From NCBI GenBank assembly GCA_038228615.1, contig JBBRPC010000001.1, positions 1 through 57,422 on the forward strand: a stretch of DNA of 57,422 nt, in the 5' to 3' direction. A program made the translations under genes and the position numbers. This document shows, one piece after another, positions 1,668 through 57,422 of this stretch. Numbering within the stretch: the first letter of the stretch is position 1; every line of letters starts with the position of its first letter. The stretch comes from Acidimicrobiia bacterium (GTDB lineage: Bacteria; Actinomycetota; Acidimicrobiia; IMCC26256; PALSA-610). The notes beneath the pieces are model-generated. The model was not told the DNA's origin. It saw only the letters and a list, made by a program, of their open reading frames with translations, and ran no database searches.

Positions 1668-3083
1668 TTATCCGTGGAGCGATCTGCCGGTAAGTGAAAG
1701 GGCGGTTTCGCCGAACACTTCCGACAACGTCGGGTGGGCGTGAATGAGTGCCCCGAGATCAGCGGCAGTCGCCTCCCAGTTGACCGAAAGGTATCCCTCG
1801 CCAATGAGTTCTGTCGCCCAAGGTCCACAGATGTGCACGCCGAGCAACACGCCGCTCTTTTTGTCGGCAACGACTTTGACCAACCCGTCGGAGTCACCGA
1901 TGATCAGCGCCCTTCCATTCCCTAAGAATCGGTGCACCGACGTCTCGACCTCGTAACCGAGTTCTTTGGCTTTCGCCTCAGTCAGCCCACAGAACGCGAC
2001 CTCAGGATGGCAGTAGATTCCCCATGGCACTTTGTCATAGTCGATCGGCGCTGGCGCCTCGCCCAGCATGTCTTTGACTGCAACAATCGCTTCGGCAAAC
2101 GCAACATGTGCGAGTTGTGGCGTATTCACGAGATCGCCGAGCGCATACAGACCCGACACGGACGTCCGTAGCATCGAGTCGACGGTCACGAAGCCACGTT
2201 CGTCGATCAACACGCCAGCTTCGAGCAGCCCCGCACCTTCGCTACGAGGCCGGCGACCGACGCTCACAATGACCACATCGGCATCGAGTTCCGCCGCGCC
2301 TTTTTTTGACTCATAGTGAACCGTGACTCCATCGCCCCGAACCGCAGCGCTGTGAATAACCACACCCACTTCAGATGTGATGCCACGCTTTTGAAACGAC
2401 CGAGCCACAACTTGCGCGACCTGGGGGTCGACGCCGTTCAATAGCTGCGGCAGTGCTTCCAGGATCGTTACCTCCGAACCAACATCGCGCAGGAACGAAG
2501 CAAATTCACACCCGATCGCACCGCCGCCCACCACAACAACTCGCCGCGGAACCGTGTCGATATCGAGCACATGATCCGACGACAGGACTCGTACCCCATC
2601 GAAATCAAAGCCAGGAAGCGGCAACGACCGGGGCACCGAACCCATAGCGAGCGCGACGAACTTCCCACGGAGCTCGGTACCGTCGGAGACGCGCACGAGA
2701 CGACCACGACCATCAGCCAAACGGCCAGTGCCCGGAAGAACAGTCACTTTGCGACCCTTGAGCAGTCCCTCAAGTCCGCCAACGAGGCGATCAATCACAG
2801 CCTGTTTGCGAGTTTGGCTCGTCGCGAGATTCACCGTCGCTTCGGCGCCCCCCGCAACCTCAATCCCAAACTCCCCAGCGTCACGAACGGTGCGCGCGAC
2901 GGTGGCGGTCTCCAGCAGCTCTTTGGCAGGAATACAGCCACGGTTCAGACACGTACCTCCGATACGCTGCTCCTCAACGAGCGCGACTTTGAGGCCAGCG
3001 GCCGAACCGTAGAGCGCGGCGCCATAGCCGGCGGGACCGCCTCCTACTACAACAAGATCGAACTCTTCAGCCATCTCACTCAC
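1668..3083 (-). CDS. lpd: Dihydrolipoyl dehydrogenase (E3)
   Basis: FAD-binding VVVGGGPAGY. Redox-active disulfide GGTCLNRGCIPAK. Second Rossmann motif VVVGGGAIGCEFA. C-terminal HAHPTLSE motif. Length 471 aa. Confidence 0.95.
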   Translation of the reverse strand: MSEMAEEFDLVVVGGGPAGYGAALYGSAAGLKVALVEEQRIGGTCLNRGCIPAKELLETATVARTVRDAGEFGIEVAGGAEATVNLATSQTRKQAVIDRLVGGLEGLLKGRKVTVLPGTGRLADGRGRLVRVSDGTELRGKFVALAMGSVPRSLPLPGFDFDGVRVLSSDHVLDIDTVPRRVVVVGGGAIGCEFASFLRDVGSEVTILEALPQLLNGVDPQVAQVVARSFQKRGITSEVGVVIHSAAVRGDGVTVHYESKKGAAELDADVVIVSVGRRPRSEGAGLLEAGVLIDERGFVTVDSMLRTSVSGLYALGDLVNTPQLAHVAFAEAIVAVKDMLGEAPAPIDYDKVPWGIYCHPEVAFCGLTEAKAKELGYEVETSVHRFLGNGRALIIGDSDGLVKVVADKKSGVLLGVHICGPWATELIGEGYLSVNWEATAADLGALIHAHPTLSEVFGETALSLTGRSLHG

Positions 3084-3242
3084 CTCTCCATGAACATTGC
3101 GCCTGCTTCGAGCGCCCCGAGGACAATGTCCGCGGTCAACCGATCAGGAACACGAACGCCAGTCCCGCGCCCAAGATCGCCGTCGCGCATACGGCACAGA
3201 GCACCAACAGAGTGCGGGTCTTCATCGGTTACTCGGTTTACC

Positions 3243-4601
3243 ATGCAGACAATGCAATCGCGTGCCCGAAGAGTGGCCGAGAACATTCCTTCTGGTACCG
3301 GTTCAATCGCACTCGGGTTGATGATCGGCTCGGCCGCGGCGTGGGCGTTTCAAATCTTCGCCGAAAAGAAGCTGAGTGATCCCGGTTACAACGCCGTCAA
3401 CTCACTTTGGGTGCTCACGTTCGTGGTCACTCCCGGGTTCTTCCAACCGCTCGAACAAGAAGTCGCTCGAGCAATCGCGCATCGCCGCGAACGAGGCGAG
3501 GGCGGCGGCCCCGTCCTTTGGAAGGCGGTACGCCTCGGGGCGGTACTTGCAGCCATGACCGCGGTCATCGTCTTAGCGGTCTTTCTTTTCGTACCGGGGA
3601 CGGTCGATCAGCTGTTCAAGAAGAGCATTTCCACTGCGAATCACTGGATGCTCATCGGTTCGCTCATCGTCGCGCTTGGCACCTACGCCACGGCATACCT
3701 CGTCCGCGGTGCGCTCAGCGGCAACGAACGATTCAAGAACTACGGGTTGATGCACGGCACCGAAGGGGTCGTGCGAGTCGCAGCCGTCGTCGCGATCGTC
3801 GTGTCGGGCCATGCCACACCAGGCCTCTTTGGACTCGCGCTTGTGTTGCCGCCGATTGTGGCAGTGCTCGTCTCTCTACGCGGTCAAAAAGGGCTGGCCG
3901 AACCCGGGCCAGAGGCTTCGTATTCGGAGCTTTCGACCGCATTGGCTTGGTTGCTCTCAAGCTCGATCATGGCGCAAGTGCTGTCGTATGCCCCTGTGTT
4001 TGCAGCCCAAATCCTGATGAGTTCAAGCACCAACGACCAACGTCTGCTCGCCGGCTTCGTAACTGCGATGTTCTTAGCTCGGGTCCCACTGCTCATGTTT
4101 CAAGCCGTGCAAGCTGCGCTGCTCCCCAAGCTCGCGGCCAGCGCTGCTGCAGGTCGTCACGATGAATTTAGGGCAGCATTGCTGCGCCTGCTCGTGCTCG
4201 TACTCGTAGTCGCTGGCACTGGCGTGGTCGCAGCGTTACTCCTCGGCAGACCAGTGGGCCATTTCATCTTCCACAAGAAGTGGACACTAGAGAGCCCGCA
4301 ACTTGCGCTGCTTGCTGCGGGTGCCGGCGCGTACATCGTGGCGTTCACACTGGCGCAGGGATTGATTGCGTTGAAGGCCTATTCGAAACTCACGATGGGT
4401 TGGGGCATCGGGATGATCGGTTTCATCGGGGTGATGCCGTTCGGTGGCAACGTCATCAATCGGGCGCAGTTCGCATTTCTCGCCAGCAGTCTGTTGGCCG
4501 CGATTGCGATTACCGCGTTCCTGTTCCGGGCGATGCGAACCTCGACAGCGACAGTCGAAGACCTCATCGAAACGCTGCGTCATGAACAACCCGAGTTCTA
4601 A
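3243..4601 (+). CDS. Polytopic membrane protein, MOP/Wzx-like polysaccharide flippase family (tentative)
   Basis: ORF 2571..4601 is only plausible from ATG 3243 (MQTMQSRARR...). Upstream codons are antisense to lpd. About 12 hydrophobic segments and a Wzx/MurJ-like length (~452 aa), at the head of a glycosyltransferase cluster. The family call comes from topology and context, not from a named motif. Confidence 0.65.
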   Translation: MQTMQSRARRVAENIPSGTGSIALGLMIGSAAAWAFQIFAEKKLSDPGYNAVNSLWVLTFVVTPGFFQPLEQEVARAIAHRRERGEGGGPVLWKAVRLGAVLAAMTAVIVLAVFLFVPGTVDQLFKKSISTANHWMLIGSLIVALGTYATAYLVRGALSGNERFKNYGLMHGTEGVVRVAAVVAIVVSGHATPGLFGLALVLPPIVAVLVSLRGQKGLAEPGPEASYSELSTALAWLLSSSIMAQVLSYAPVFAAQILMSSSTNDQRLLAGFVTAMFLARVPLLMFQAVQAALLPKLAASAAAGRHDEFRAALLRLLVLVLVVAGTGVVAALLLGRPVGHFIFHKKWTLESPQLALLAAGAGAYIVAFTLAQGLIALKAYSKLTMGWGIGMIGFIGVMPFGGNVINRAQFAFLASSLLAAIAITAFLFRAMRTSTATVEDLIETLRHEQPEF

Positions 4602-9334: not shown

Positions 9335-9550
9335 GTGAAGAAATTGGCGAAGCGCGCGATCGCGCCGTTTGAGCGGCGGCTCGAGATCGCGGTCACTCGT
9401 GCGGTCGAGACAGCGATGCGTTCGGAGGCTGTGGCCCTTCGGGAGGCGCTACGCGCTGATGTGGCGACCCTCGTCGAACTCACGTACGAACTCCAACGCG
9501 TCGCCGCGCAGATCGTCGCCGCAGCCCCAACTTCGCCCGAAACGTCTTGA
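9335..9550 (+). CDS. Small (71 aa) predicted coiled-coil protein
   Basis: GTG start. High G/C third-position usage. Heptad-like helical sequence (AVALREALRADVATLVELTYELQRVAAQI). Stop TGA (9548-9550) overlaps the TTG start (9547) of the double glycosyltransferase. Confidence 0.6.
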   Translation: MKKLAKRAIAPFERRLEIAVTRAVETAMRSEAVALREALRADVATLVELTYELQRVAAQIVAAAPTSPETS

Positions 9551-12030
9551 AGCCCAACAACTCAACCGACTTCGGGATCGTCGTCGACATCCAGGCTCTG
9601 CAAAACCCGTTGCACCGCGAGCGCGGCATCGGGCGTTACATCATCGATCATGTCGACGCGCTCATCGATGCCGGTGCGCCACTCGAGGCCCTCGTACTCA
9701 ACCCAATGGCACCTGTTCCGCACGTTCCGGAACACTGGATAGATCGTCGGCTGATGCAATGGAACACACCAGCTGTTATGCGGTCCGCGCTCCAGCGATG
9801 GCCCAACGTCGTGTATCACATTGCGTCGCCGTTCGAACCGACAGTCCCGGAGTCGGGGCTCGTGACGCCGCACGGAGTCCGCGATGCAACCGTCCTGTCG
9901 GTGACGGTATTCGACGTCATTCCGTATGTATTCCCAGCCGTGCATCAACCCACAGAAACATTGCGATCGTTCTTTCGGCGTCGGGCCCGGCTTATCAGTA
10001 CGGCCGACTTGGTACTCACAATTTCAGAACATACGCGCACCGATTCCATAAACACATTTGCGCTCGATCCGAACAAGGTGGTGAACACGAGCACGGGCGG
10101 CGCTGCATTCTTCGCGCCATCCGACCGTCGTCCGAAAACTGACGAGCGTTCGTACGTACTGACAGTGTCAGGGTGGGGCGACCCACGTAAGGATCCGTCT
10201 ACGACGTTTCGCGCGTATGCATCCTTGCCAGCGAAGATCCGAGAACAACATCGCCTTGTGGTCGTGTGCAACCTTCCGCCAGAGGGCAACGATGCATGGC
10301 GCCACGAAACTCGTGAACTCGGCTTGCGCGATGAGGAGGTGCACTTCACGGGGCACATCGATGATGAGGAACTACGTTCGCTGTACACCCACGCCGAGAT
10401 CTACGTCACGTCGTCGCGCTACGAAGGTTTCGGCCTACCTGTGTTGGAAGCAGCTAGATGCGGCACGCCGTCGCTCACGACCTCGGTGTCATCGCTGCCT
10501 GAGGTTCTCGCCTATCCGCCAGCAACGTTCCCACCGGGCGACCACATTTCCCTCGCGCGTTTGCTACAGCAGGCATTGACAGATGCTCAGTTTCGAGCTG
10601 CCCTGCTGGAGGCGAGTCAACGCGCCGCGGCGACCTACACCTGGGATCGCGTCGCCGCGACAACGGTCGCCGCATGGACTGGCGCGGTCGCAACGCATCA
10701 ACGAAGACAGCTGGCGGCCGGAAACGCATCGGCCGGCCGTTCCGCTGTGGCCGGTATGCGTCACCGCACATTGCCTCACTCGCTACGCATCGCGATCGCA
10801 GGCCCGTTTCCACCATCGAAATCTGGCATCGGGACATTCAATGCTCGCGTCGGAGTTGCACTCGCACGCGACCACGACATCGACTGGTTCACAGAAGGCG
10901 ACGACTGCATGCCCCCGCCGTCGTACAAACGTGATCACGGGCAGTATCCGATTGCTGCGCTCGGTCGAACGCTGCACCCTGGCTCCTACGACGGCGTCAT
11001 CTACACGATTGGCAACGGGCACTACCACCCCCAAACGTTGCGCGCCGCGCTGCGAACGCCGGGAATCGTGTGGCTCCATGATGCGCACCTCGCTGGCTTG
11101 TATCTCACCGCGAATGGATTGTTTCTCCCAGATCGCGATGCCAGCCCATCTGTCATCGCCGACGCGCGATCGACAATGGCTGCCACCGTCGCAGAGATGT
11201 ACGGCCCAGGTAACGAACTCGGCGACGACGAATGGTGGCGCACCGACGCGTACGACCGACGCGGTCTGACGATGCTGTCGGGGTTGCTGCACACAGCCCG
11301 CGCGCTCATCGTCAACACCGAGGCTGCTGGCGACATTGCTCGCAGCGAAGCACCGATGTCGCTGCCAATCCACATACTGCCATTGCCATATCCGACCTCG
11401 ACACCTCGCGACGAAGCGCCCGATCGCGACAGTGATCGGCTCGTCGTGAGCCTGGGTTGGGTCGACCCTATGAAACGACCGCACGACCTCATACGGGCCG
11501 TTGCGCACAGCCGCAACACGATTGGACAACGGATACGCGTGGCGTTTGTCGGGGAACTCGCGCCGAACCTGCACGCCGAGCTGGTCGCGTTGGCGCAATC
11601 GTTGCACCTCGAAGACAGCGTGGTCTTCACTGGCTTCATCCCCGACGAGGAGTACAACGGTTGGCTCGCAAACGCCGACATTGCGGTGCAGCTCAGGACC
11701 GAGACCCGAGGCGAGGCTTCGGCGGCGCTCGGCGACGCGATCGCGCACGGAATTCCGACGATCACGACAATTACGACGGCCGAAGAACTTCCGGCGGGTG
11801 TCGTCGAATTCCTCGATCCAGCGAGCGACGCCAGGGCAATTTCAGACAAGATCACGGAATTGTTGACTCACCCCGAGACGCGGTCACAACTTCGCGACAG
11901 AGCACTCTCGCATGCAGCAACGTGGCATTTCGATGATCTCGCGGCTCGAGTCGTCGAAATCGTCCGCGAGACGTCGCAGCGCACCGCGGAACGGCTAACG
12001 CTGCCAATCGGCCAACAGCAGCCACGATGA
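9547..12030 (+). CDS. Bifunctional-type glycosyltransferase with two GT4 modules (827 aa)
   Basis: Module 1: IVVDIQAL...RGIGRYI and SRYEGFGLPVLEAARCGTPSL. Module 2: RIAIAGPFPPSKSGIGTF and ETRGEASAALGDAIAHGIPTI. Confidence 0.88.
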   Translation: MKPNNSTDFGIVVDIQALQNPLHRERGIGRYIIDHVDALIDAGAPLEALVLNPMAPVPHVPEHWIDRRLMQWNTPAVMRSALQRWPNVVYHIASPFEPTVPESGLVTPHGVRDATVLSVTVFDVIPYVFPAVHQPTETLRSFFRRRARLISTADLVLTISEHTRTDSINTFALDPNKVVNTSTGGAAFFAPSDRRPKTDERSYVLTVSGWGDPRKDPSTTFRAYASLPAKIREQHRLVVVCNLPPEGNDAWRHETRELGLRDEEVHFTGHIDDEELRSLYTHAEIYVTSSRYEGFGLPVLEAARCGTPSLTTSVSSLPEVLAYPPATFPPGDHISLARLLQQALTDAQFRAALLEASQRAAATYTWDRVAATTVAAWTGAVATHQRRQLAAGNASAGRSAVAGMRHRTLPHSLRIAIAGPFPPSKSGIGTFNARVGVALARDHDIDWFTEGDDCMPPPSYKRDHGQYPIAALGRTLHPGSYDGVIYTIGNGHYHPQTLRAALRTPGIVWLHDAHLAGLYLTANGLFLPDRDASPSVIADARSTMAATVAEMYGPGNELGDDEWWRTDAYDRRGLTMLSGLLHTARALIVNTEAAGDIARSEAPMSLPIHILPLPYPTSTPRDEAPDRDSDRLVVSLGWVDPMKRPHDLIRAVAHSRNTIGQRIRVAFVGELAPNLHAELVALAQSLHLEDSVVFTGFIPDEEYNGWLANADIAVQLRTETRGEASAALGDAIAHGIPTITTITTAEELPAGVVEFLDPASDARAISDKITELLTHPETRSQLRDRALSHAATWHFDDLAARVVEIVRETSQRTAERLTLPIGQQQPR

Positions 12031-51263: not shown

Positions 51264-51315
51264 GAGAGCCGAAGAGGAGACTCGAACTCCTGACCTGCTC
51301 ATTACGAGAAGGCTA
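51264..51315 (-). other. tRNA 3' fragment (variable arm, T arm and acceptor 3' strand; Leu-like): candidate att remnant
   Basis: The reverse complement reads ...ccttctcgtaatgagcaGGTC AGGAG TTCGAGT CTCCT CTTCGGC t. This is a canonical 5-bp T stem with a TTCGAGT loop and a 7-nt acceptor 3' strand. There is no matching 5' acceptor strand (cttcggc on the plus strand), D arm or valid anticodon stem further on. Confidence 0.6.
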
Positions 51316-51360: not shown

Positions 51361-53310
51361 TCAACGAGGCAGCGCGGGCAGCGCGCCGTGGCAAAGCCAT
51401 TCGCGTATTGCAAGGCATGCTGCGACATCGTCCTCGTTATAGCGGAGCAGACGCGATTGAGCGGCAAGGTCTCCACCAATAGCGTCTTCGTGCCAGAGCA
51501 TCGAAAGGTCGCCGCCAGCATCGACAGCATCCCAACTAGCGCCAGCGAAGGGCGCGATTTTCTTCAAACCAGATCCGGCTGCGCCAACAGCGACGCGGTT
51601 GAACTCTCGTTCCAAATCGACCCACACATCAACATCGGCGACCAACGTTCGGATCTCGGCCATTCGTCGCCGAGGGTTCCCAGTGAACGGTGCTGCGCGC
51701 CGAAGCTTGCCAATCTCGGCTGCGTCATGCCAGCTGTATACCTTCACCGTCAATCCGTCTGACTTTGCTGCTTCGATCGCGGCGAGGATCCATTCCCAGA
51801 ATTCTTCGAAGAGGAGGCCTTCGGCGGTCGCGGTGATGTCCTCCCATCGAGCAAAGGGCCGGTACCCATTTGCTTCCCGAAACGCATGATCGGATCGGTT
51901 CGTTAACAGCGTTCCCCAGAGATAGACAGCGCCGTCAAAATCGTTTTCCATGTCGATGTCGATCTCGATGTCAGCGCGCGGGACCGCAGTCGAACCGACA
52001 TCGCGTCGCCGATGAGGTCGACCGCCGCCGTGCACCGCGACCCATGCGATGTCGACAAGTTCAGCGACATTTGCAACCTCGCCCTGAAGCGATAGCGCGC
52101 GGGGATCCAATGCAAGCAAGTCACCGGCGTTGGCGATACCGCATGCATCCAGTGCGCGCAACTGCCGTACTGCCTTTCGACCCAAGACGGCCTTCATCGG
52201 CGTCGCCGGTTCGTGTCGCCCAGCGGTCTCGAACACTCCCAGCAACGAAACATCCACGGGAAAATCATCGATCAATCGCGCAGTAGTTGGATCGACTGCC
52301 GCAAGATCAACACGAGACCGGTAGCCGATGCGACGCAATGATGACCATTGTTTGTAGCCCACTCGCGGGAGCAGACTCACGTCGCCGGAGCCGCCCATAA
52401 GTGCTGGCAAACAATGGTCGCGCCACTCGCAGTCTGCGCATTCCGCGCACTTCATCGGGTCGGTCAGGAGCGGGATGGCTGGATCTTCACGATGGCGCAC
52501 AGCCGTCGCGGCGATGTCGAGGCGGAACGCGAACTCGAAGTCGTAGCGCTGCAACGCCGACTCCGTTTCGTCTCGAAACGGTGCGGCATTCGAGCGGAAT
52601 CGCGGCCAGCTCAAATCTGCCCAGACCACACCAGGCTCGTCGTTGCCAATGATTCCACCCCACACCGGCCCGTCGCCCGAAGCGCCGTGACCGCACGCTT
52701 CGAGCATCCTCCAATAGTGGGCCAGTTGCAGCAGGTCGTTGCGCCGAGATTCACTGTTGGCATCGAAACGGTCGTCGACCGTTTCAGCATCCTCGAAGAA
52801 CGGAGTATCGAGGGGCGAGACCGACGCGGGCAACCCTTTTGACTCAGCCAAGGCCCGGTGATTCTTCACATCGATAGGCCAGTAACAGGGCTTTCCTGTG
52901 TCCGAAAGTCGTTCACCTGCGCGCACGAGCACGTCGGGTCTGCCGGTGCGACCGCCGCCATCGTCATTGGGCAGCGTGCCGCCGACGATCACCGGCGCTC
53001 CACTTTCCATTCCGCGAACAGTCGCGGCAACCGCGTCGGTCACGTCGCGGTCGATCCTCAACGCCCCGTCGAACTGCTGCGTGATCAGTGCCTCGAATTC
53101 GTTGCCCTTGTCGAAACGCCTCTGCATCGCCGCGCTCGGTGCGGCAATTGCGACACCACTCGGCGCATCAAACTGGAGCTGCGTTCGCACCGGACATCGC
53201 CTCGCGGCATACGCCCCGAGTGGGCGTAAGCCGATGCGTGAGAGCTTCGCAACGTAGGGGTCGTACGCACGCGTCATCTCGTTAGCGACGAGGTCTGGAG
53301 CGTCGGCCAT
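51361..53310 (-). CDS. TM0106-family RecB-like nuclease (PD-(D/E)xK with Cys cluster, HhH, and an RNase H-like exonuclease domain)
   Basis: GRPDVLVR...YWPIDVKNH (D...D-x-K). LQLAHYWRML (QxxxY). Cys cluster KCAECADCEWRDHC plus Cys38. HhH-like ACGIANAGDLLAL. C-terminal IEIDIDMENDFDGAVYLWG exonuclease-type acidic motif. The start sits 1 nt after the upstream stop (TGAaATG). Confidence 0.85.
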   Translation of the reverse strand: MADAPDLVANEMTRAYDPYVAKLSRIGLRPLGAYAARRCPVRTQLQFDAPSGVAIAAPSAAMQRRFDKGNEFEALITQQFDGALRIDRDVTDAVAATVRGMESGAPVIVGGTLPNDDGGGRTGRPDVLVRAGERLSDTGKPCYWPIDVKNHRALAESKGLPASVSPLDTPFFEDAETVDDRFDANSESRRNDLLQLAHYWRMLEACGHGASGDGPVWGGIIGNDEPGVVWADLSWPRFRSNAAPFRDETESALQRYDFEFAFRLDIAATAVRHREDPAIPLLTDPMKCAECADCEWRDHCLPALMGGSGDVSLLPRVGYKQWSSLRRIGYRSRVDLAAVDPTTARLIDDFPVDVSLLGVFETAGRHEPATPMKAVLGRKAVRQLRALDACGIANAGDLLALDPRALSLQGEVANVAELVDIAWVAVHGGGRPHRRRDVGSTAVPRADIEIDIDMENDFDGAVYLWGTLLTNRSDHAFREANGYRPFARWEDITATAEGLLFEEFWEWILAAIEAAKSDGLTVKVYSWHDAAEIGKLRRAAPFTGNPRRRMAEIRTLVADVDVWVDLEREFNRVAVGAAGSGLKKIAPFAGASWDAVDAGGDLSMLWHEDAIGGDLAAQSRLLRYNEDDVAACLAIREWLCHGALPALPR

Positions 53311-53311
53311 T

Positions 53312-56056
53312 TCAGGTCAACGAAAGCCGCTGCGAACCCGCCGAAGTTTCAAACGGGTGGTATGGACGCGTGCCGGCGGAGATCTCGCGATTGCGTTCTA
53401 GCAAGAGATGCACGATCGCGTCATCGTCATGCGCAACCGCTGGCGGCCATCCGTAGGCGTCGGCGACGGCCAAGTCAAGCTTTTGGTGCAAGGCAGGAAG
53501 GTCTGAATACGCACCGTCTTCGACGCGGTTGTATAACTCCGTCAGGCCGATTTGTTCACTGACGCAGATCTCTTCCCGGCGCGCCACGATCCTGCGAGAA
53601 CACTCGGCGACTGCCTCGGCAGCGTGGGCGGTGGGAGAGTCGGGCCAGGGAAACGTCTCGAAGACCGTTGTCGGCGTATAGCGCAGGTCCGCCTTCAACG
53701 TTGAAGATCGCGACCACGCCCATGCAATATGAGCCCGAGCACATAACACACCCATGGAGAAGTCATCGTCGAAGGGGAACACGACTGTGGCGTCGCTTGG
53801 GCAAGTAGTTACAGGAATCCAAGTAGCGAAGAACCGCTTCCCGTGCCTAACCGCAACGACGAATCGAGCCTTGCCTTCGGCCGCCTTTCGCAGTTTCGGT
53901 CGCGGGCGCCCGAAACGCCACCAAAATGCGCGAAATCCAGGGTCATCGTTTGCATCCCGAACAGGTTTCACGCGTTCGCGCACGATTTTGAGAGCCGCCG
54001 GATACTGCATCGCTTCTTCGAGCGGGCGAATTCCGAAGTTGATGATCCAGCGTCGAGCCTGCTGTGCTGGATCCTCGGCAATGTCGTCTGAGGTGACGAA
54101 CGGAATGACAACGTCGCCATAGCGCGCGTCCGTCAATGCAAGTAACCCCGCGGCTTCGTCGTCGCTCACGATAAATCCTTCACCCACCGGAATCGGTCCT
54201 TGAAAACTGTGGGATTTGTTGGCTTTGAGCGTCGCAACGTGACCCGTCGAGCGTTCTGGAGTCCGCAACTCGGGCGTGATCCCAGCGACAACGACACCAT
54301 CGAGTATGAACTGATCGACGACTTCAGGGCGCTTCACCCAGTTGACCAGACTTACGTGCACCTTCGCTTCACCCGGCCATTTCTGCGTAGACACGGCATC
54401 GGTGATCACACCGTTGTTACCGTCGATGTATTCAAGCGATGCGGAACGCGCCTTGTTCTGCGACACAGAGTTCGTGCCTACGAGCCCGGCACGCTGACCC
54501 GGTTGGAGTTGGTCGTGCGCTTTGCGGAACCAATACACGCAGTAGTCCTTGACCCCGACATTGAACGTCTTCTTCAGCATCGCGACATAGGCATCTCCGC
54601 GCGCGCCTCGAACGAGCTGCGATCCAAGAAACGGAGGGTTGCCAATGATGCAGTCGACTGTTGGCCAGTCTTTGACCAACGCGTCGCCGACTTCAATGCT
54701 TTTCATATCCACGAGTGGAAGCACCGGTTCGGCAGGTCCGAATCGATCCGACATTTGTTTGTGGCCCATCCACAACGTCACGCGAGCTATGAACGCGGTG
54801 ATCGGTTCGAGCTCGATGCCGTGAAGATTGTCGAGGCGGTAGTAGGGCAACGGTTCGGGGGGCGCGGCGTGCCCGGTCGATCCAGCCAACGCAACGATCC
54901 GACGCTTGCACTCCGATTCCAGCTGTCGTAGCTCCCGGTACGCTACGTACAGGAAGTTGCCACAACCGCAAGCCGGGTCGAGCACACGAAACGTGCAGAG
55001 GCGATCCAACACGGCGCGAGCTTCAGCAGGTGTCTTCGCAGCATCGATCTGCTCACGCCATGGGCGGACAATCGTTGGCCCGACGATCTTCATGATGTCC
55101 GACTCGTGGGTGTAATGAGCGCCGAGCTTCCATCGCTGCTCCTTACCCAAACAGCCTTCCATCAACGACCCGAAAATGGTGGGGTCGACGTTTTTCCAAT
55201 CAAACCGCGCAGCTTCGCGTAGCAGCAACAATTCGTCGTGGTTCAAGGTCACTTTTGCTGGCTTCGCAAACAACGAACCGTTGACATATTTGGTGCCCGC
55301 AAGGATGCCAACGCGCCCGTAATCGTCCTCGTCGTTGAGCACGTCGAACATATCGCCGAGTAGCGCACGCGACGTGAGTTGAGGGTTCTCGAGCAGCGTG
55401 TCAATGATGCGTTGCACAGGATGTCCCTCAAGCATCGCGAGATCCTCGGCAAAAAGACACCACACGATCTGCAAAATGAATCGCTGAATCTCTTCAGGTG
55501 CGGCTGCATCACGCGCCTTCAACTCGCGATACAGGACACCGATCGTGCTCGCAGCCTCGGTTGTCAGTTCCTTATTTGTCGTTCCAAATAGCGGGTCGTG
55601 TCCGACACCAGCGAGGAACAGAAGCGTTTCATAACGATCGGGCAACTCCGCGAGGGTGAAATCAGCGCGCGGCTCAGTCGGATATTTCCCCGGCTCCCAG
55701 ACCTCGAAACGGCCGAACGCGCAAAGCACAACGTACGGCGGAGCCGGCCTATCCGAAGCGCTGTCCGATGAGTGAAGCCAATAGTCCAGCGCCTGCTTAC
55801 GATGCTCGGCAAGTTTCTCCGCGCGATGCGGAGCCTTCATTTCGATAATGGCGACGCCCGGGAAGAAGAGATCCATGATTCCCGCAGAAGTATGGGAATC
55901 TTCAAAAAGCGCGCCCGCGGCCTTTCGATTGTTGCCATAGCACTCGAAGAGGTCGTTGAGAAAAGTCTGCGCCTCGGACCGTTCCGTTCCCGCGTACAGA
56001 GCCCACTCAGCGACAAACTTTCGAAGGTTCGCCTGGATTTCTGCGCCCGACAGCAC
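53312..56056 (-). CDS. MmeI-family type IIL restriction-modification enzyme (fused nuclease, N6-adenine methyltransferase and TRD)
   Basis: Block-by-block collinear with MmeI as I recall it. LSGAEIQANLRKF corresponds to LSWNEIRRKA. DLFFPGVAIIEMK is the D...ExK nuclease. YVVLCAFGRFEVW, WCLFAED, YVNGSLF, FGSLMEG and LGAHYTHESDI follow. VLDPACGCGNFL is motif I and IIGNPPFLG is motif IV. GTG 56056 gives 914 aa (MmeI is ~919). The ORF-track start 56137 would overlap the upstream ORF by 68 nt. Confidence 0.9.
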   Translation of the reverse strand: MLSGAEIQANLRKFVAEWALYAGTERSEAQTFLNDLFECYGNNRKAAGALFEDSHTSAGIMDLFFPGVAIIEMKAPHRAEKLAEHRKQALDYWLHSSDSASDRPAPPYVVLCAFGRFEVWEPGKYPTEPRADFTLAELPDRYETLLFLAGVGHDPLFGTTNKELTTEAASTIGVLYRELKARDAAAPEEIQRFILQIVWCLFAEDLAMLEGHPVQRIIDTLLENPQLTSRALLGDMFDVLNDEDDYGRVGILAGTKYVNGSLFAKPAKVTLNHDELLLLREAARFDWKNVDPTIFGSLMEGCLGKEQRWKLGAHYTHESDIMKIVGPTIVRPWREQIDAAKTPAEARAVLDRLCTFRVLDPACGCGNFLYVAYRELRQLESECKRRIVALAGSTGHAAPPEPLPYYRLDNLHGIELEPITAFIARVTLWMGHKQMSDRFGPAEPVLPLVDMKSIEVGDALVKDWPTVDCIIGNPPFLGSQLVRGARGDAYVAMLKKTFNVGVKDYCVYWFRKAHDQLQPGQRAGLVGTNSVSQNKARSASLEYIDGNNGVITDAVSTQKWPGEAKVHVSLVNWVKRPEVVDQFILDGVVVAGITPELRTPERSTGHVATLKANKSHSFQGPIPVGEGFIVSDDEAAGLLALTDARYGDVVIPFVTSDDIAEDPAQQARRWIINFGIRPLEEAMQYPAALKIVRERVKPVRDANDDPGFRAFWWRFGRPRPKLRKAAEGKARFVVAVRHGKRFFATWIPVTTCPSDATVVFPFDDDFSMGVLCARAHIAWAWSRSSTLKADLRYTPTTVFETFPWPDSPTAHAAEAVAECSRRIVARREEICVSEQIGLTELYNRVEDGAYSDLPALHQKLDLAVADAYGWPPAVAHDDDAIVHLLLERNREISAGTRPYHPFETSAGSQRLSLT

Positions 56057-56069
56057 TAGCGAGAACCGT

Positions 56070-56324
56070 CTAAACCAAGCGTTGCTGCGCGCCCGAAAGA
56101 TACGCCTCTTCGAACAACGCCTTGTGTGCATCTGCAAGCGACTTGGCTGCTGTGCGTAGTGCGAGTTCAGTGTTCCTATCGCGGCCCAGCAACGCCACGG
56201 CCTTTACAGCCCGGTCCGCGCGTCGTTGCGCCTTTTCGATGTTCAAGAGCGTTTCGGCGACCTCGGCCATAGCGGTCTCATGGGCCACCTGCTCCACGGA
56301 TCGCTCGCTAAATGATGCGCTCAT
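56070..56324 (-). CDS. Small all-helical hypothetical protein (84 aa)
   Basis: ATG 56324 overlaps the stop of the upstream small ORF (ATGA). Good codon bias. Sequence MSASFSERSVEQVAHETAMAEVAETLLNIEKAQRRADRAVKAVALLGRDRNTELALRTAAKSLADAHKALFEEAYLSGAQQRLV. Ends 13 nt before the MmeI-like GTG. Confidence 0.6.
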   Translation of the reverse strand: MSASFSERSVEQVAHETAMAEVAETLLNIEKAQRRADRAVKAVALLGRDRNTELALRTAAKSLADAHKALFEEAYLSGAQQRLV

Positions 56325-56521
56325 GGCTCGCTACCGTATCCGTCCGCTCGATGGCTCGCAGGCTCAAAGCCGGGCCAAAACCCGATTCTCGTGATCATGC
56401 ACTCATGATCGCACAGGGCTGCGACACCGTCGAGTGTTACACGGTATCGGCTTCCGCCGAACCAGTCACTCCGCCTTCGTAAACGATACCCCGACCACGT
56501 GCAATCGATGCGGCCCGGCAA
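56321..56521 (-). CDS. Possible small ORF (66 aa from TTG; or a 25-aa version from ATG 56398)
   Basis: Moderate codon bias. The stop overlaps the next ATG. A TTG start would overlap the upstream gene by 56 nt. Weak support. Confidence 0.3.
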   Translation of the reverse strand: MPGRIDCTWSGYRLRRRSDWFGGSRYRVTLDGVAALCDHECMITRIGFWPGFEPASHRADGYGSEP

Positions 56522-57422
56522 ACCAACGGCCTGTCAGGCGCGATCGGCGGTACGTGCCAAGCCAACCGACCGGTTTGACGACCACTTCGACGCGCCATGA
56601 ACGATTGCCGATGTCGGGCAATCCCGCGCCTTGCTCGCCCAGCGCGGCGTACCAGCCGGTCATCGAATCGAGCATAAGTACGGCGCGACGTTCGGCCCGC
56701 CCAGAACGCAACATCACAGCACCGCCGAAACGCGGCTCAGCGGGACCACCGCAATGCATAGAAAGGTGAAGCGGGTCGGTGCCTCCGGTGAGCGGATTGG
56801 CGATGCCGGAGGACTCTGCATCGCAGTATCTGCGGTCGATCCAATCGCGATCGGTAAAGCTTCGACTTTGTGCAGCACCGAACCAATCGGTCGACCACAG
56901 CCACGCTGCAAACCAATCGAGTTGGCCGTCGCGATCCCAAATGTTTGCGATGAGTTCGAAACGATGGTCAGCGTTTGGTTTCCCATTCTCGTACCACCAG
57001 CGCAGCCCGCGTCCAGGGTCTGACCATCCGAATGAGTACAGCAGCAGATGCAGCAACGGTGTCCAGTATGCGGCTGCAATCATGTGATCAACGCCACGTT
57101 CCGGAATCGCGAGTATGTCGCGCATCGGGCCAGGTGAAGCAAGCGATCGATACAACCAAGGAACGTGCGCGTTCCATGTCGGGTCGCCGAAGTACAGGAT
57201 GTCGGCCGGAGTGTTTCCCGCGTCGCTGACATCGGAGTCAGCTTCATCGGTTTTTGCTTGGAACGCTTCGATGGTTGCCGCATCGACTTTTGAAAAGGTT
57301 GCTACTTCAACGGTTTCGATTGCGACGTCCCTCTCCAAAACAGCCGGTTCAATGTCGCTGACGTTCGTGACTCCGAAGCCTTCGAGTTCATAGGTAATTC
57401 CGTTGCCGCCGCTGCCGTCGGC
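56466..57422 (-). CDS. Trp-rich hypothetical protein, 5'-partial (frame stays open to the right edge of the window)
   Basis: The ORF track starts it at TTG 57338. However, the same frame upstream (ADGSGGNGITYELEGFGVTNVSDIEPAV) has no stop and keeps coding-like codon usage up to 57422. No motif recognised. Many Trp residues (WYENGK, DWFAAWLWSTDWFG). Confidence 0.65.
   Translation of the reverse strand, partial: ADGSGGNGITYELEGFGVTNVSDIEPAVLERDVAIETVEVATFSKVDAATIEAFQAKTDEADSDVSDAGNTPADILYFGDPTWNAHVPWLYRSLASPGPMRDILAIPERGVDHMIAAAYWTPLLHLLLYSFGWSDPGRGLRWWYENGKPNADHRFELIANIWDRDGQLDWFAAWLWSTDWFGAAQSRSFTDRDWIDRRYCDAESSGIANPLTGGTDPLHLSMHCGGPAEPRFGGAVMLRSGRAERRAVLMLDSMTGWYAALGEQGAGLPDIGNRSWRVEVVVKPVGWLGTYRRSRLTGRWFAGPHRLHVVGVSFTKAE

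Follow-up and report, generated by a model that had tools for sequence, protein, structure and literature searches.

A small helical protein, an MmeI-family enzyme and a TM0106-family nuclease encoded in tight succession at the end of an Acidimicrobiia contig

We analyzed a window of 57,422 nucleotides (nt) from an Acidimicrobiia bacterium (assembly GCA_038228615.1, contig JBBRPC010000001.1). The window is the entire NCBI metagenome-assembled contig, and the sequence ends at both contig ends. At its right end, the minus strand carries, in the direction of transcription, open reading frames (ORFs) for an 84 amino acid (aa) protein that we call p84 (56070-56324), a 914 aa MmeI-like protein with a GTG start (53312-56056) and a 649 aa nuclease of the TM0106 family (51361-53310). 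Two further minus-strand ORFs lie upstream, one of 66 aa with a TTG start (56321-56521) and one encoding a tryptophan (Trp)-rich protein that is open at the contig end (56466-57422). A preliminary description of this DNA had read all five ORFs as tightly packed. The ORF coordinates were confirmed, as were, upon re-reading the sequence, the two junctions it had pointed out: 13 nt lie between the p84 TAG and the GTG of the MmeI-like gene, and a single nt separates the TGA of this gene from the nuclease ATG (TGAaATG). The nuclease, MmeI-like, p84 and Trp-rich ORFs all have a coding-type GC pattern across codon positions, but the 66 aa ORF does not, and once it is discounted, 141 nt separate the stop codon of the Trp-rich gene from the p84 start. 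Tight coupling therefore holds only for p84, the MmeI-like gene and the nuclease gene, and the best reading is of a functional unit of three genes (51361-56324, minus strand) rather than five. A scan for sigma-70 promoters and terminators gave nothing above shuffled sequences and is uninformative for a GC-rich organism.

The central gene of the unit encodes a protein with the domain order of MmeI: an N-terminal PD-ExK nuclease, a helical spacer, a gamma-class N6-adenine methyltransferase and a target recognition domain. Four Pfam models exceeded their cut-off, which is 27 bits for each (MmeI_N PF20464, 84.8 bits; MmeI_hel PF20465, 43.9; MmeI_Mtase PF20473, 130.7; MmeI_TRD PF20466, 43.1), and no MmeI_C domain was detected at E ≤ 0.01. 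The PADLOC type IIG model matched from end to end (5e-209), and the sequence of the MmeI structure PDB 5HR4 matched at 6e-69. Residues D62, E72 and K74, found in GIMDLFFPGVAIIEMK, align with D70, E80 and K82 of MmeI, found in GFVDLFWPGILLIEMK; these are the catalytic residues of MmeI, and mutating them abolishes cleavage (PMC4833311). The methyltransferase motifs DPACGCGNF (motif I) and NPPF (motif IV) are present and aligned to MmeI as well, and the GTG start is supported because the alignment with MmeI begins at residue 3. Among the ORFs of 51-57.4 kb, no other methyltransferase match was found that could represent a separate companion enzyme. Judged by its sequence, the protein is a complete, nuclease-proficient enzyme of type IIL, a class of restriction-modification (R-M) systems, and the earlier assignment to the MmeI family stands.

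The downstream protein matches the TIGR03491 model with 129.8 bits, above the NCBIfam cut-off of 97.45, and has three parts. Conserved columns in our alignments A1 and A3 delimit a Cas4/AddB/Dna2-type PD-(D/E)xK domain at residues ~28-305 (52396-53229), with a four-cysteine cluster (C39, C291, C294 and C300), D126, D147-x-K149 and Q195-LAH-Y199. The middle region, residues ~309-430 (52021-52386), is all-helical in the AlphaFold2 secondary structure; alignment A1 shows two helix-hairpin-helix (HhH)-like motifs in it, GDVSLLPRVGYKQW... and CGIANAGDLLAL, which were assigned by eye and have no family match, and two related nucleases, P0006 and P0010, are missing part of the region. Residues ~440-645 (51376-51993) form a DEDDy-type 3´-5´ exonuclease domain (RNase_H_2, PF13482, 3.8e-07), with D447, E449, D451, D453 and E455 in the motif DIEIDIDME, D565, and Y624-NED-D628. 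In an alignment of 80 sequences, C291, C294 and C300 are invariant, C39, D126, D147 and K149 are at least 90% conserved, and Q195 and Y199 vary little or not at all. Seven DEDDy residues (E449, D451, D453, E455, D565, Y624 and D628) are invariant. Both catalytic centers are intact, and the combination described previously (PD-(D/E)xK core, four-cysteine cluster, HhH and RNase H-like exonuclease) is borne out.

The AlphaFold2 model of the nuclease (pLDDT 94.4, pTM 0.90) shows an alpha/beta N-terminal domain, a helical middle and an alpha/beta C-terminal domain. Foldseek against the PDB with the whole model returned weak domain-level matches, all with E > 0.05, to RNase T for the C-terminal domain (probability 0.97, E = 0.06) and to Dna2 and AdnAB for the N-terminal domain (E ~ 0.09); the sequence profile of the nuclease found no match in the PDB. 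In motifs and predicted fold, its two catalytic domains agree with Cas4, AddB/AdnB, Dna2 and RNase T. Unlike them, it joins both domains in one chain through an HhH region, and is encoded with neither a helicase nor a CRISPR context. Our literature search found no characterized member of the TM0106 family.

The first gene of the unit is small, yet p84 is a real protein under purifying selection: its GC content at the three codon positions (0.67/0.45/0.67) is of coding type, and a comparison with the orthologue in one metagenome locus (L138) shows 36 synonymous and nine non-synonymous codon changes. Close homologues are 69-99% identical. An exhaustive HMMER search yielded 35 representative clusters at 50% identity, with lengths of 65-166 aa, mostly 65-125 (alignment A5, which is too diverse for a pattern scan). 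From the sequence and this alignment, p84 reads as all-helical, with two long helices, and the family has no Pfam or PDB relative. A small gene immediately upstream of a restriction gene, and probably co-transcribed with it, recalls the controller (C) proteins of type II R-M systems. C proteins, however, have an Xre-type helix-turn-helix (HTH) that binds a conserved palindrome, whereas no HTH family matched p84 or more than one of 40 family members, and no inverted repeat was shared upstream of p84 among six loci. We predict on these grounds that p84 is not an HTH controller protein. Neither p84 nor the nuclease had a match in a phage collection, nor was one found in viral contigs, and exact-sequence look-ups of the two window proteins in contigs gave no match.

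The preliminary description had noted p84 as helical and without a recognized motif, and had missed its association with MmeI genes. The eight plasmid records with a p84 match comprise seven Rhodococcus conjugative plasmids and one Frondihabitans plasmid (~1e-33 for the p84-family hidden Markov model against the plasmid proteins), and in all eight the p84 homologue sits 0-43 nt upstream of an MmeI-family gene whose product is 55-58% identical to that of the window and has the D-x9-E-x-K motif intact. Another homologue, P0272, is a fusion remnant in which p84-like residues 16-67 (58% identical) are joined to a match to MmeI residues 777-877 (55%); it is a further deletion product, in another lineage. 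Wherever the context is readable, p84 is directly upstream of this MmeI subfamily and is its most consistent partner.

Two observations concern the DNA around p84 genes. A perfect inverted repeat, GATCATG-AGTG-CATGATC, occupies window positions 56393-56410, on the upstream side of the p84 start at a distance of 69-86 nt; the DNA preceding the p84 homologues in L138, L141 and L142-L144 does not conserve it. In two Rhodococcus plasmids (L142, 5957-5994; L143, 5952-5994), a GC-rich hairpin or palindrome (e.g. GTGACCCT...AGGGTCAC) is found in the short spacer that separates the p84 homologue from the MmeI gene; it might attenuate or regulate read-through into the MmeI gene.

The pairing of the MmeI-like gene with the nuclease gene has to be seen against the TM0106 family at large. 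The preliminary description had taken equally frequent placement of the nuclease gene beside unrelated housekeeping genes as an argument against coupling. For ordinary TM0106 homologues (≤41% identical), we looked for MmeI-like genes within 10 kb in 80 species-representative genomes and found none (0/80 loci); these homologues are isolated among unrelated housekeeping genes and have no conserved partner. MmeI was also absent from the five inspected loci of plasmid-borne homologues (30-34% identical). The window nuclease differs from the family at large in this respect. In a neighbor-joining tree of 80 homologues, it falls in a separate clade of seven (100% bootstrap), with the other 73 outside; within the clade, it groups with P0002 (100%), then with P0003 and P0004 (97%), P0005 (96%), and P0006 and P0010 (100%). 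The inner sub-clade consists of the window nuclease, P0002, P0003 and P0004, and in the three of these in which the upstream DNA ends in coding sequence, the nuclease gene follows an MmeI gene with a gap of 1-4 nt or a stop-start overlap. In the P0003 locus (L081), the nuclease is 56% identical to that of the window, and directly upstream, with a TTGA overlap, is a 988-aa MmeI gene that has all five MmeI Pfam domains and whose product is 27% identical to the window enzyme. The P0002 nuclease gene (L087; product 64% identical) begins 4 nt after the end of an MmeI gene, represented by its final 39 residues (59% identical). The window nuclease thus belongs to a distinct clade found beside MmeI or on mobile elements; in its domains it resembles ordinary TIGR03491 members (above the NCBIfam cut-off, with a Cas4-like four-cysteine PD-(D/E)xK domain and a C-terminal RNase_H_2 domain), and in its setting it does not.

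We also noted that actinobacterial plasmids and integrative elements repeatedly carry genes for TM0106-family nucleases (L135-L137, L145 and L146; L082 and L084-L086), among them M. avium p1-JPH1 (L135), Pimelobacter pA-N39 (L136) and a Dietzia locus (L137). On these elements, the nuclease genes are often near genes for a cytosine methyltransferase, DUF4262, an ADP-ribosylglycohydrolase, DprA or a relaxase, and Dietzia plasmids carry several fragmentary copies. This distribution suggests that part of the TM0106 family has a role in the DNA biology of mobile elements.

Four contigs from different samples (L138-L141) preserve what appears to be the remnant of a cassette that once contained all three genes. 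In each, the TAG stop of p84 is joined directly to the last 83 nuclease codons, in frame (the scar is at 10001-10473 in L138, with equivalents in L139-L141). The DNA after the TAG is 72% identical to window positions 51612-51367, and the nuclease remnant is most like P0002. Gene calling gave a 79-aa ORF at the scar, which is spurious and in the wrong frame. The simplest reading of these sequences is that one 4.46-kb deletion removed MmeI and most of the nuclease gene from an ancestral p84-MmeI-nuclease cassette. The stretch homologous to the window begins 17 nt ahead of the p84 start (56341) and ends 6 nt short of the nuclease stop, and the flanks differ from those of the window, with a LuxR-type regulator upstream and a minus-strand gene downstream. 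As homology is limited to the unit while the flanks are different, the three genes behave as one unit in different contexts. The coupling of the MmeI-like and nuclease genes, as originally proposed, is thus upheld by the same order in the closest relatives (L081 and L087) and in the deletion remnant.

We find about equal reason to accept and to doubt that these genes constitute a three-gene type IIL cassette consisting of an accessory protein (p84), an MmeI-like cutter and an end-degrading nuclease. MmeI-type enzymes cleave ~20/18 nt from an asymmetric site and methylate one strand only. As we envision it from the sequences, the MmeI-like enzyme would recognize such a site, methylate one strand of the host DNA and cut unmethylated invader DNA ~20 bp away. 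The co-translated nuclease would bind the new ends through its HhH region and degrade both strands, with the 5´ strand as substrate of the Fe-S PD-(D/E)xK domain and the 3´ strand as that of the DEDDy domain, and a repairable double-strand cut would thereby be turned into irreversible DNA destruction, the task that RecBCD-type enzymes perform after restriction in other bacteria. p84 could be an accessory subunit or regulator of the MmeI enzyme that, for example, tunes the balance between cutting and methylation or aids the dimerization needed for cleavage. A broader version of this proposal is that the actinobacterial MmeI subfamily is not self-sufficient in vivo, with p84 governing whether the enzyme cuts or methylates and some lineages adding a Cas4/DEDDy nuclease to recognize, cut and shred; we regard this as an unlikely extension at present.

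Several points weigh against a three-gene cassette. The plasmids with p84 and MmeI lack the nuclease and L081 lacks p84, so neither partner is obligatory, which fits a self-sufficient MmeI. Within the nuclease clade, P0004 (50% identical) is preceded by 197 nt that seem to be non-coding and include no MmeI, and P0006 and P0010 are on integrative elements without MmeI, adjoined by integrases, a transposase and a TrwC relaxase. The pairs of MmeI and nuclease genes may all descend from one ancestral cassette, in which case the conserved order carries less weight than it would if the pairs had arisen independently. Instances are scarce, most of them on short metagenome contigs, and the polarity and substrates assigned to both nuclease domains are assumed from distant relatives.

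One alternative, which we consider rather improbable, is that the nuclease serves the host itself. Modification of one strand leaves fully unmethylated sites after replication, and the nuclease could trim the resulting self-inflicted breaks or resect them for recombinational repair, instead of destroying invader DNA. One-strand modification by the MmeI family is documented (PMC2731913), ordinary TM0106 members are chromosomal singletons among housekeeping genes, as expected of a DNA-repair enzyme, and the N-terminal domain resembles the end-resection nucleases Dna2 and AdnAB. However, this MmeI subfamily also occurs on the Rhodococcus and Frondihabitans plasmids, where the nuclease is absent and hence not needed to tolerate the enzyme, and the nuclease has no helicase or motor, unlike resection machines.

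Hitch-hiking seems to us a similarly doubtful explanation. Here, the nuclease clade would be mobile-element cargo for the DNA metabolism or counter-defense of the element, and its adjacency to MmeI would reflect shared descent only. The integrases, transposase and relaxase beside P0006 and P0010, the lack of an upstream MmeI for P0004, and the distant homologues on Mycobacterium, Pimelobacter, Dietzia, Mycolicibacterium and Tsukamurella plasmids without MmeI are all in line with this possibility. Shared descent alone fits less well with the retention of close spacing (1 nt here, 4 nt in L087, an overlap in L081) while the nuclease diverged to 56% and MmeI to 27% identity, or with the same gene order and strand in four lineages with different flanking genes.

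A further possibility, which we consider very unlikely, is that the MmeI-like protein mainly recognizes and methylates DNA while the downstream nuclease executes, as in YeeA(DnmA)-YeeB-YeeC or with DrmMI of class 1 DISARM, systems in which an MmeI-like protein is likewise encoded with a separate nuclease gene. PADLOC DrmMI models match the C-terminal half of the window enzyme at up to 2.7e-106, and some MmeI homologues are known to act with a helicase and a nuclease that are encoded separately (PMC2731913). In both of these groups, the MmeI homologue lacks PD-ExK and comes with a helicase, and in the YeeA-YeeB-YeeC type it is flanked by helicase and YeeC-like genes (PMC2731913), whereas D62, E72 and K74 are intact here, with equivalents in L081 and the plasmid relatives. 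In addition, the cassette is without a helicase or any other Drm or Brx gene, and the partner nuclease belongs to TIGR03491. Assignment to class 1 DISARM itself was rejected, as the only signals were the similarity to DrmMI-type methyltransferases and a weak partial DrmD match (2e-09 over 109 residues) on the MmeI-like protein; PADLOC found no separate Drm protein among the other four ORFs, and Pfam found no helicase or DUF1998. BREX was also rejected, since PglX models matched weakly, with E between 1e-3 and 6e-6 and 29 bits where the cut-off is 900, and there is no other Brx gene. Apart from the DrmD match, all matches to DISARM and BREX models fell in the methyltransferase region that these proteins have in common.

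The two ORFs upstream of p84 are best treated as neighbors. The 66 aa ORF (56321-56521, minus strand) spans the 141-nt spacer and overlaps the 3´ end of the Trp-rich gene. Its codon-position GC of 0.57/0.61/0.63 is not of coding type, it had no tblastn match in any of the fetched loci (best E of 0.19), and it lies outside the block conserved with L138-L141, where homology begins at 56341; it is probably non-coding, and its proposed status as a cassette gene was abandoned. The Trp-rich protein (56466-57422, minus strand) is indeed cut by the contig end, as had been stated, since P0121, a homologue of full length, has 401 aa. The family to which it belongs is an orphan one, with at least 204 clusters of mostly actinobacterial sequences (homologues P0121-P0240, loci L091-L134). 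Most members are ~275 or ~520 aa, the long form spanning ~400-540 aa, and Trp, His and Gly positions are invariant. The AlphaFold2 model of P0121 (pLDDT 85.7) had no fold match in the PDB or in a viral structure library, and the Trp-rich protein had no plasmid match.

Around homologues of the Trp-rich gene, neither p84, MmeI nor the nuclease was found in any of 39 metagenome loci and five contig places, and the protein is not part of the p84-MmeI-nuclease unit. The genes beside it differ between loci, among them Mrr together with a type I R-M system, and a TIR protein gene accompanied by RecQ-like and DprA genes; the Trp-rich protein may be a defense-island resident in its own right. Candidate conserved neighbors proved to be mostly overlapping shadow ORFs, leaving one candidate upstream gene without a Pfam match, and the small genes 3´ of the homologue in L131, considered as analogues of p84 and the 66 aa ORF, are fragments of a metallophosphatase-like gene (GDVHG motif, by eye). 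The originally described five-gene defense system, in which the Trp-rich protein and the 66 aa ORF act with p84, MmeI and the nuclease, is extremely unlikely. In its favor, the five ORFs share a strand, the scan placed no terminator-like site in the spacer that precedes p84, and some homologues of the Trp-rich protein are encoded in defense-rich neighborhoods. Against it, this family is never beside the three genes at the places surveyed, the Trp-rich gene is not upstream in L081, L138-L141 or the plasmids, L138-L141 and the window cease to be homologous 17 nt ahead of p84, and the 66 aa ORF lacks a coding signature.

A tRNA-like 3´ fragment lies on the minus strand at 51266-51313, in the DNA that separates the sulfotransferase gene from the nuclease stop. 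The Rfam tRNA model covers only the T-arm-like hairpin at 51275-51296, with a statistically weak score (11.8 bits, E = 7.2). By eye, we distinguished a Thr(CGT)-like anticodon loop CTCGTAA, a variable region AGGTC, a T-arm AGGAG-TTCGAGT-CTCCT and an acceptor-like CTTCGGC. The window has no tRNA gene according to ARAGORN or to Rfam at the gathering score, and no integrase was found among the 25 window ORFs scanned against Pfam. The fragment may be an attachment-site remnant at the inner boundary of an island that continues beyond the contig. Of the acquired island proposed earlier, the T-arm-like hairpin persists, but a tRNA gene was not found and the composition does not single the cassette out: GC at third codon positions is 0.62-0.66 in the cassette and 0.54-0.78 across the window, a range that renders the difference between cassette (0.65) and sulfotransferase gene (0.78) meaningless as an island signature.

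The rest of the contig, which is chromosomal, is of housekeeping character, with genes for a 2-oxoacid dehydrogenase E2, acyl-CoA dehydrogenases, succinate dehydrogenase, glycosyltransferases and the sulfotransferase. An 827-aa group-1 glycosyltransferase (9547-12030, plus strand) also matches the Pfam model GT4-conflict, for family 4 glycosyltransferases in conflict systems, with 50 bits; the genes around it look like ordinary cell-envelope and metabolic genes. A 676-aa ORF (2571-4601, plus strand) has a coding-type GC pattern and no Pfam match at E ≤ 1e-4.

Textbooks would name the MmeI type as the minimal R-M system, with one protein and methylation of one strand, and we know of no partners reported for such enzymes. 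The window enzyme has the full MmeI domain order, the D...ExK and NPPF motifs and the 5HR4 match. Described enzymes stand alone; here, a conserved small protein is encoded upstream and a dual nuclease is coupled downstream. A 2009 survey of the MmeI family found that no particular genes consistently flank the nuclease-proficient homologues (PMC2731913). The nuclease, p84 and the Trp-rich protein are all outside the reach of the PADLOC models, and searching the literature on TM0106, TIGR03491 and MmeI with accessory genes, we found nothing relevant on either partnership. The impression that the pairing could not be placed in a described system is consistent with all of these results. The novel aspect is the conserved p84 partner together with the coupled dual nuclease, the MmeI-type enzyme itself being of a known kind.

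The practical value would be modest unless a phenotype is shown experimentally, and the small number of instances limits the weight of the finding. If the three-gene cassette is borne out, some MmeI-type enzymes would work as multi-protein systems, and the p84 family and the nuclease clade would be two protein families to add to defense-finder models. Part of the uncharacterized TM0106 nuclease family would also gain a first functional context. The cassette would further provide a handle on the avoidance of self-restriction and on the fate of DNA after the first cut, and a role for p84 as governor of the enzyme, if true, would bear on how one-strand-modifying enzymes spare freshly replicated host DNA.

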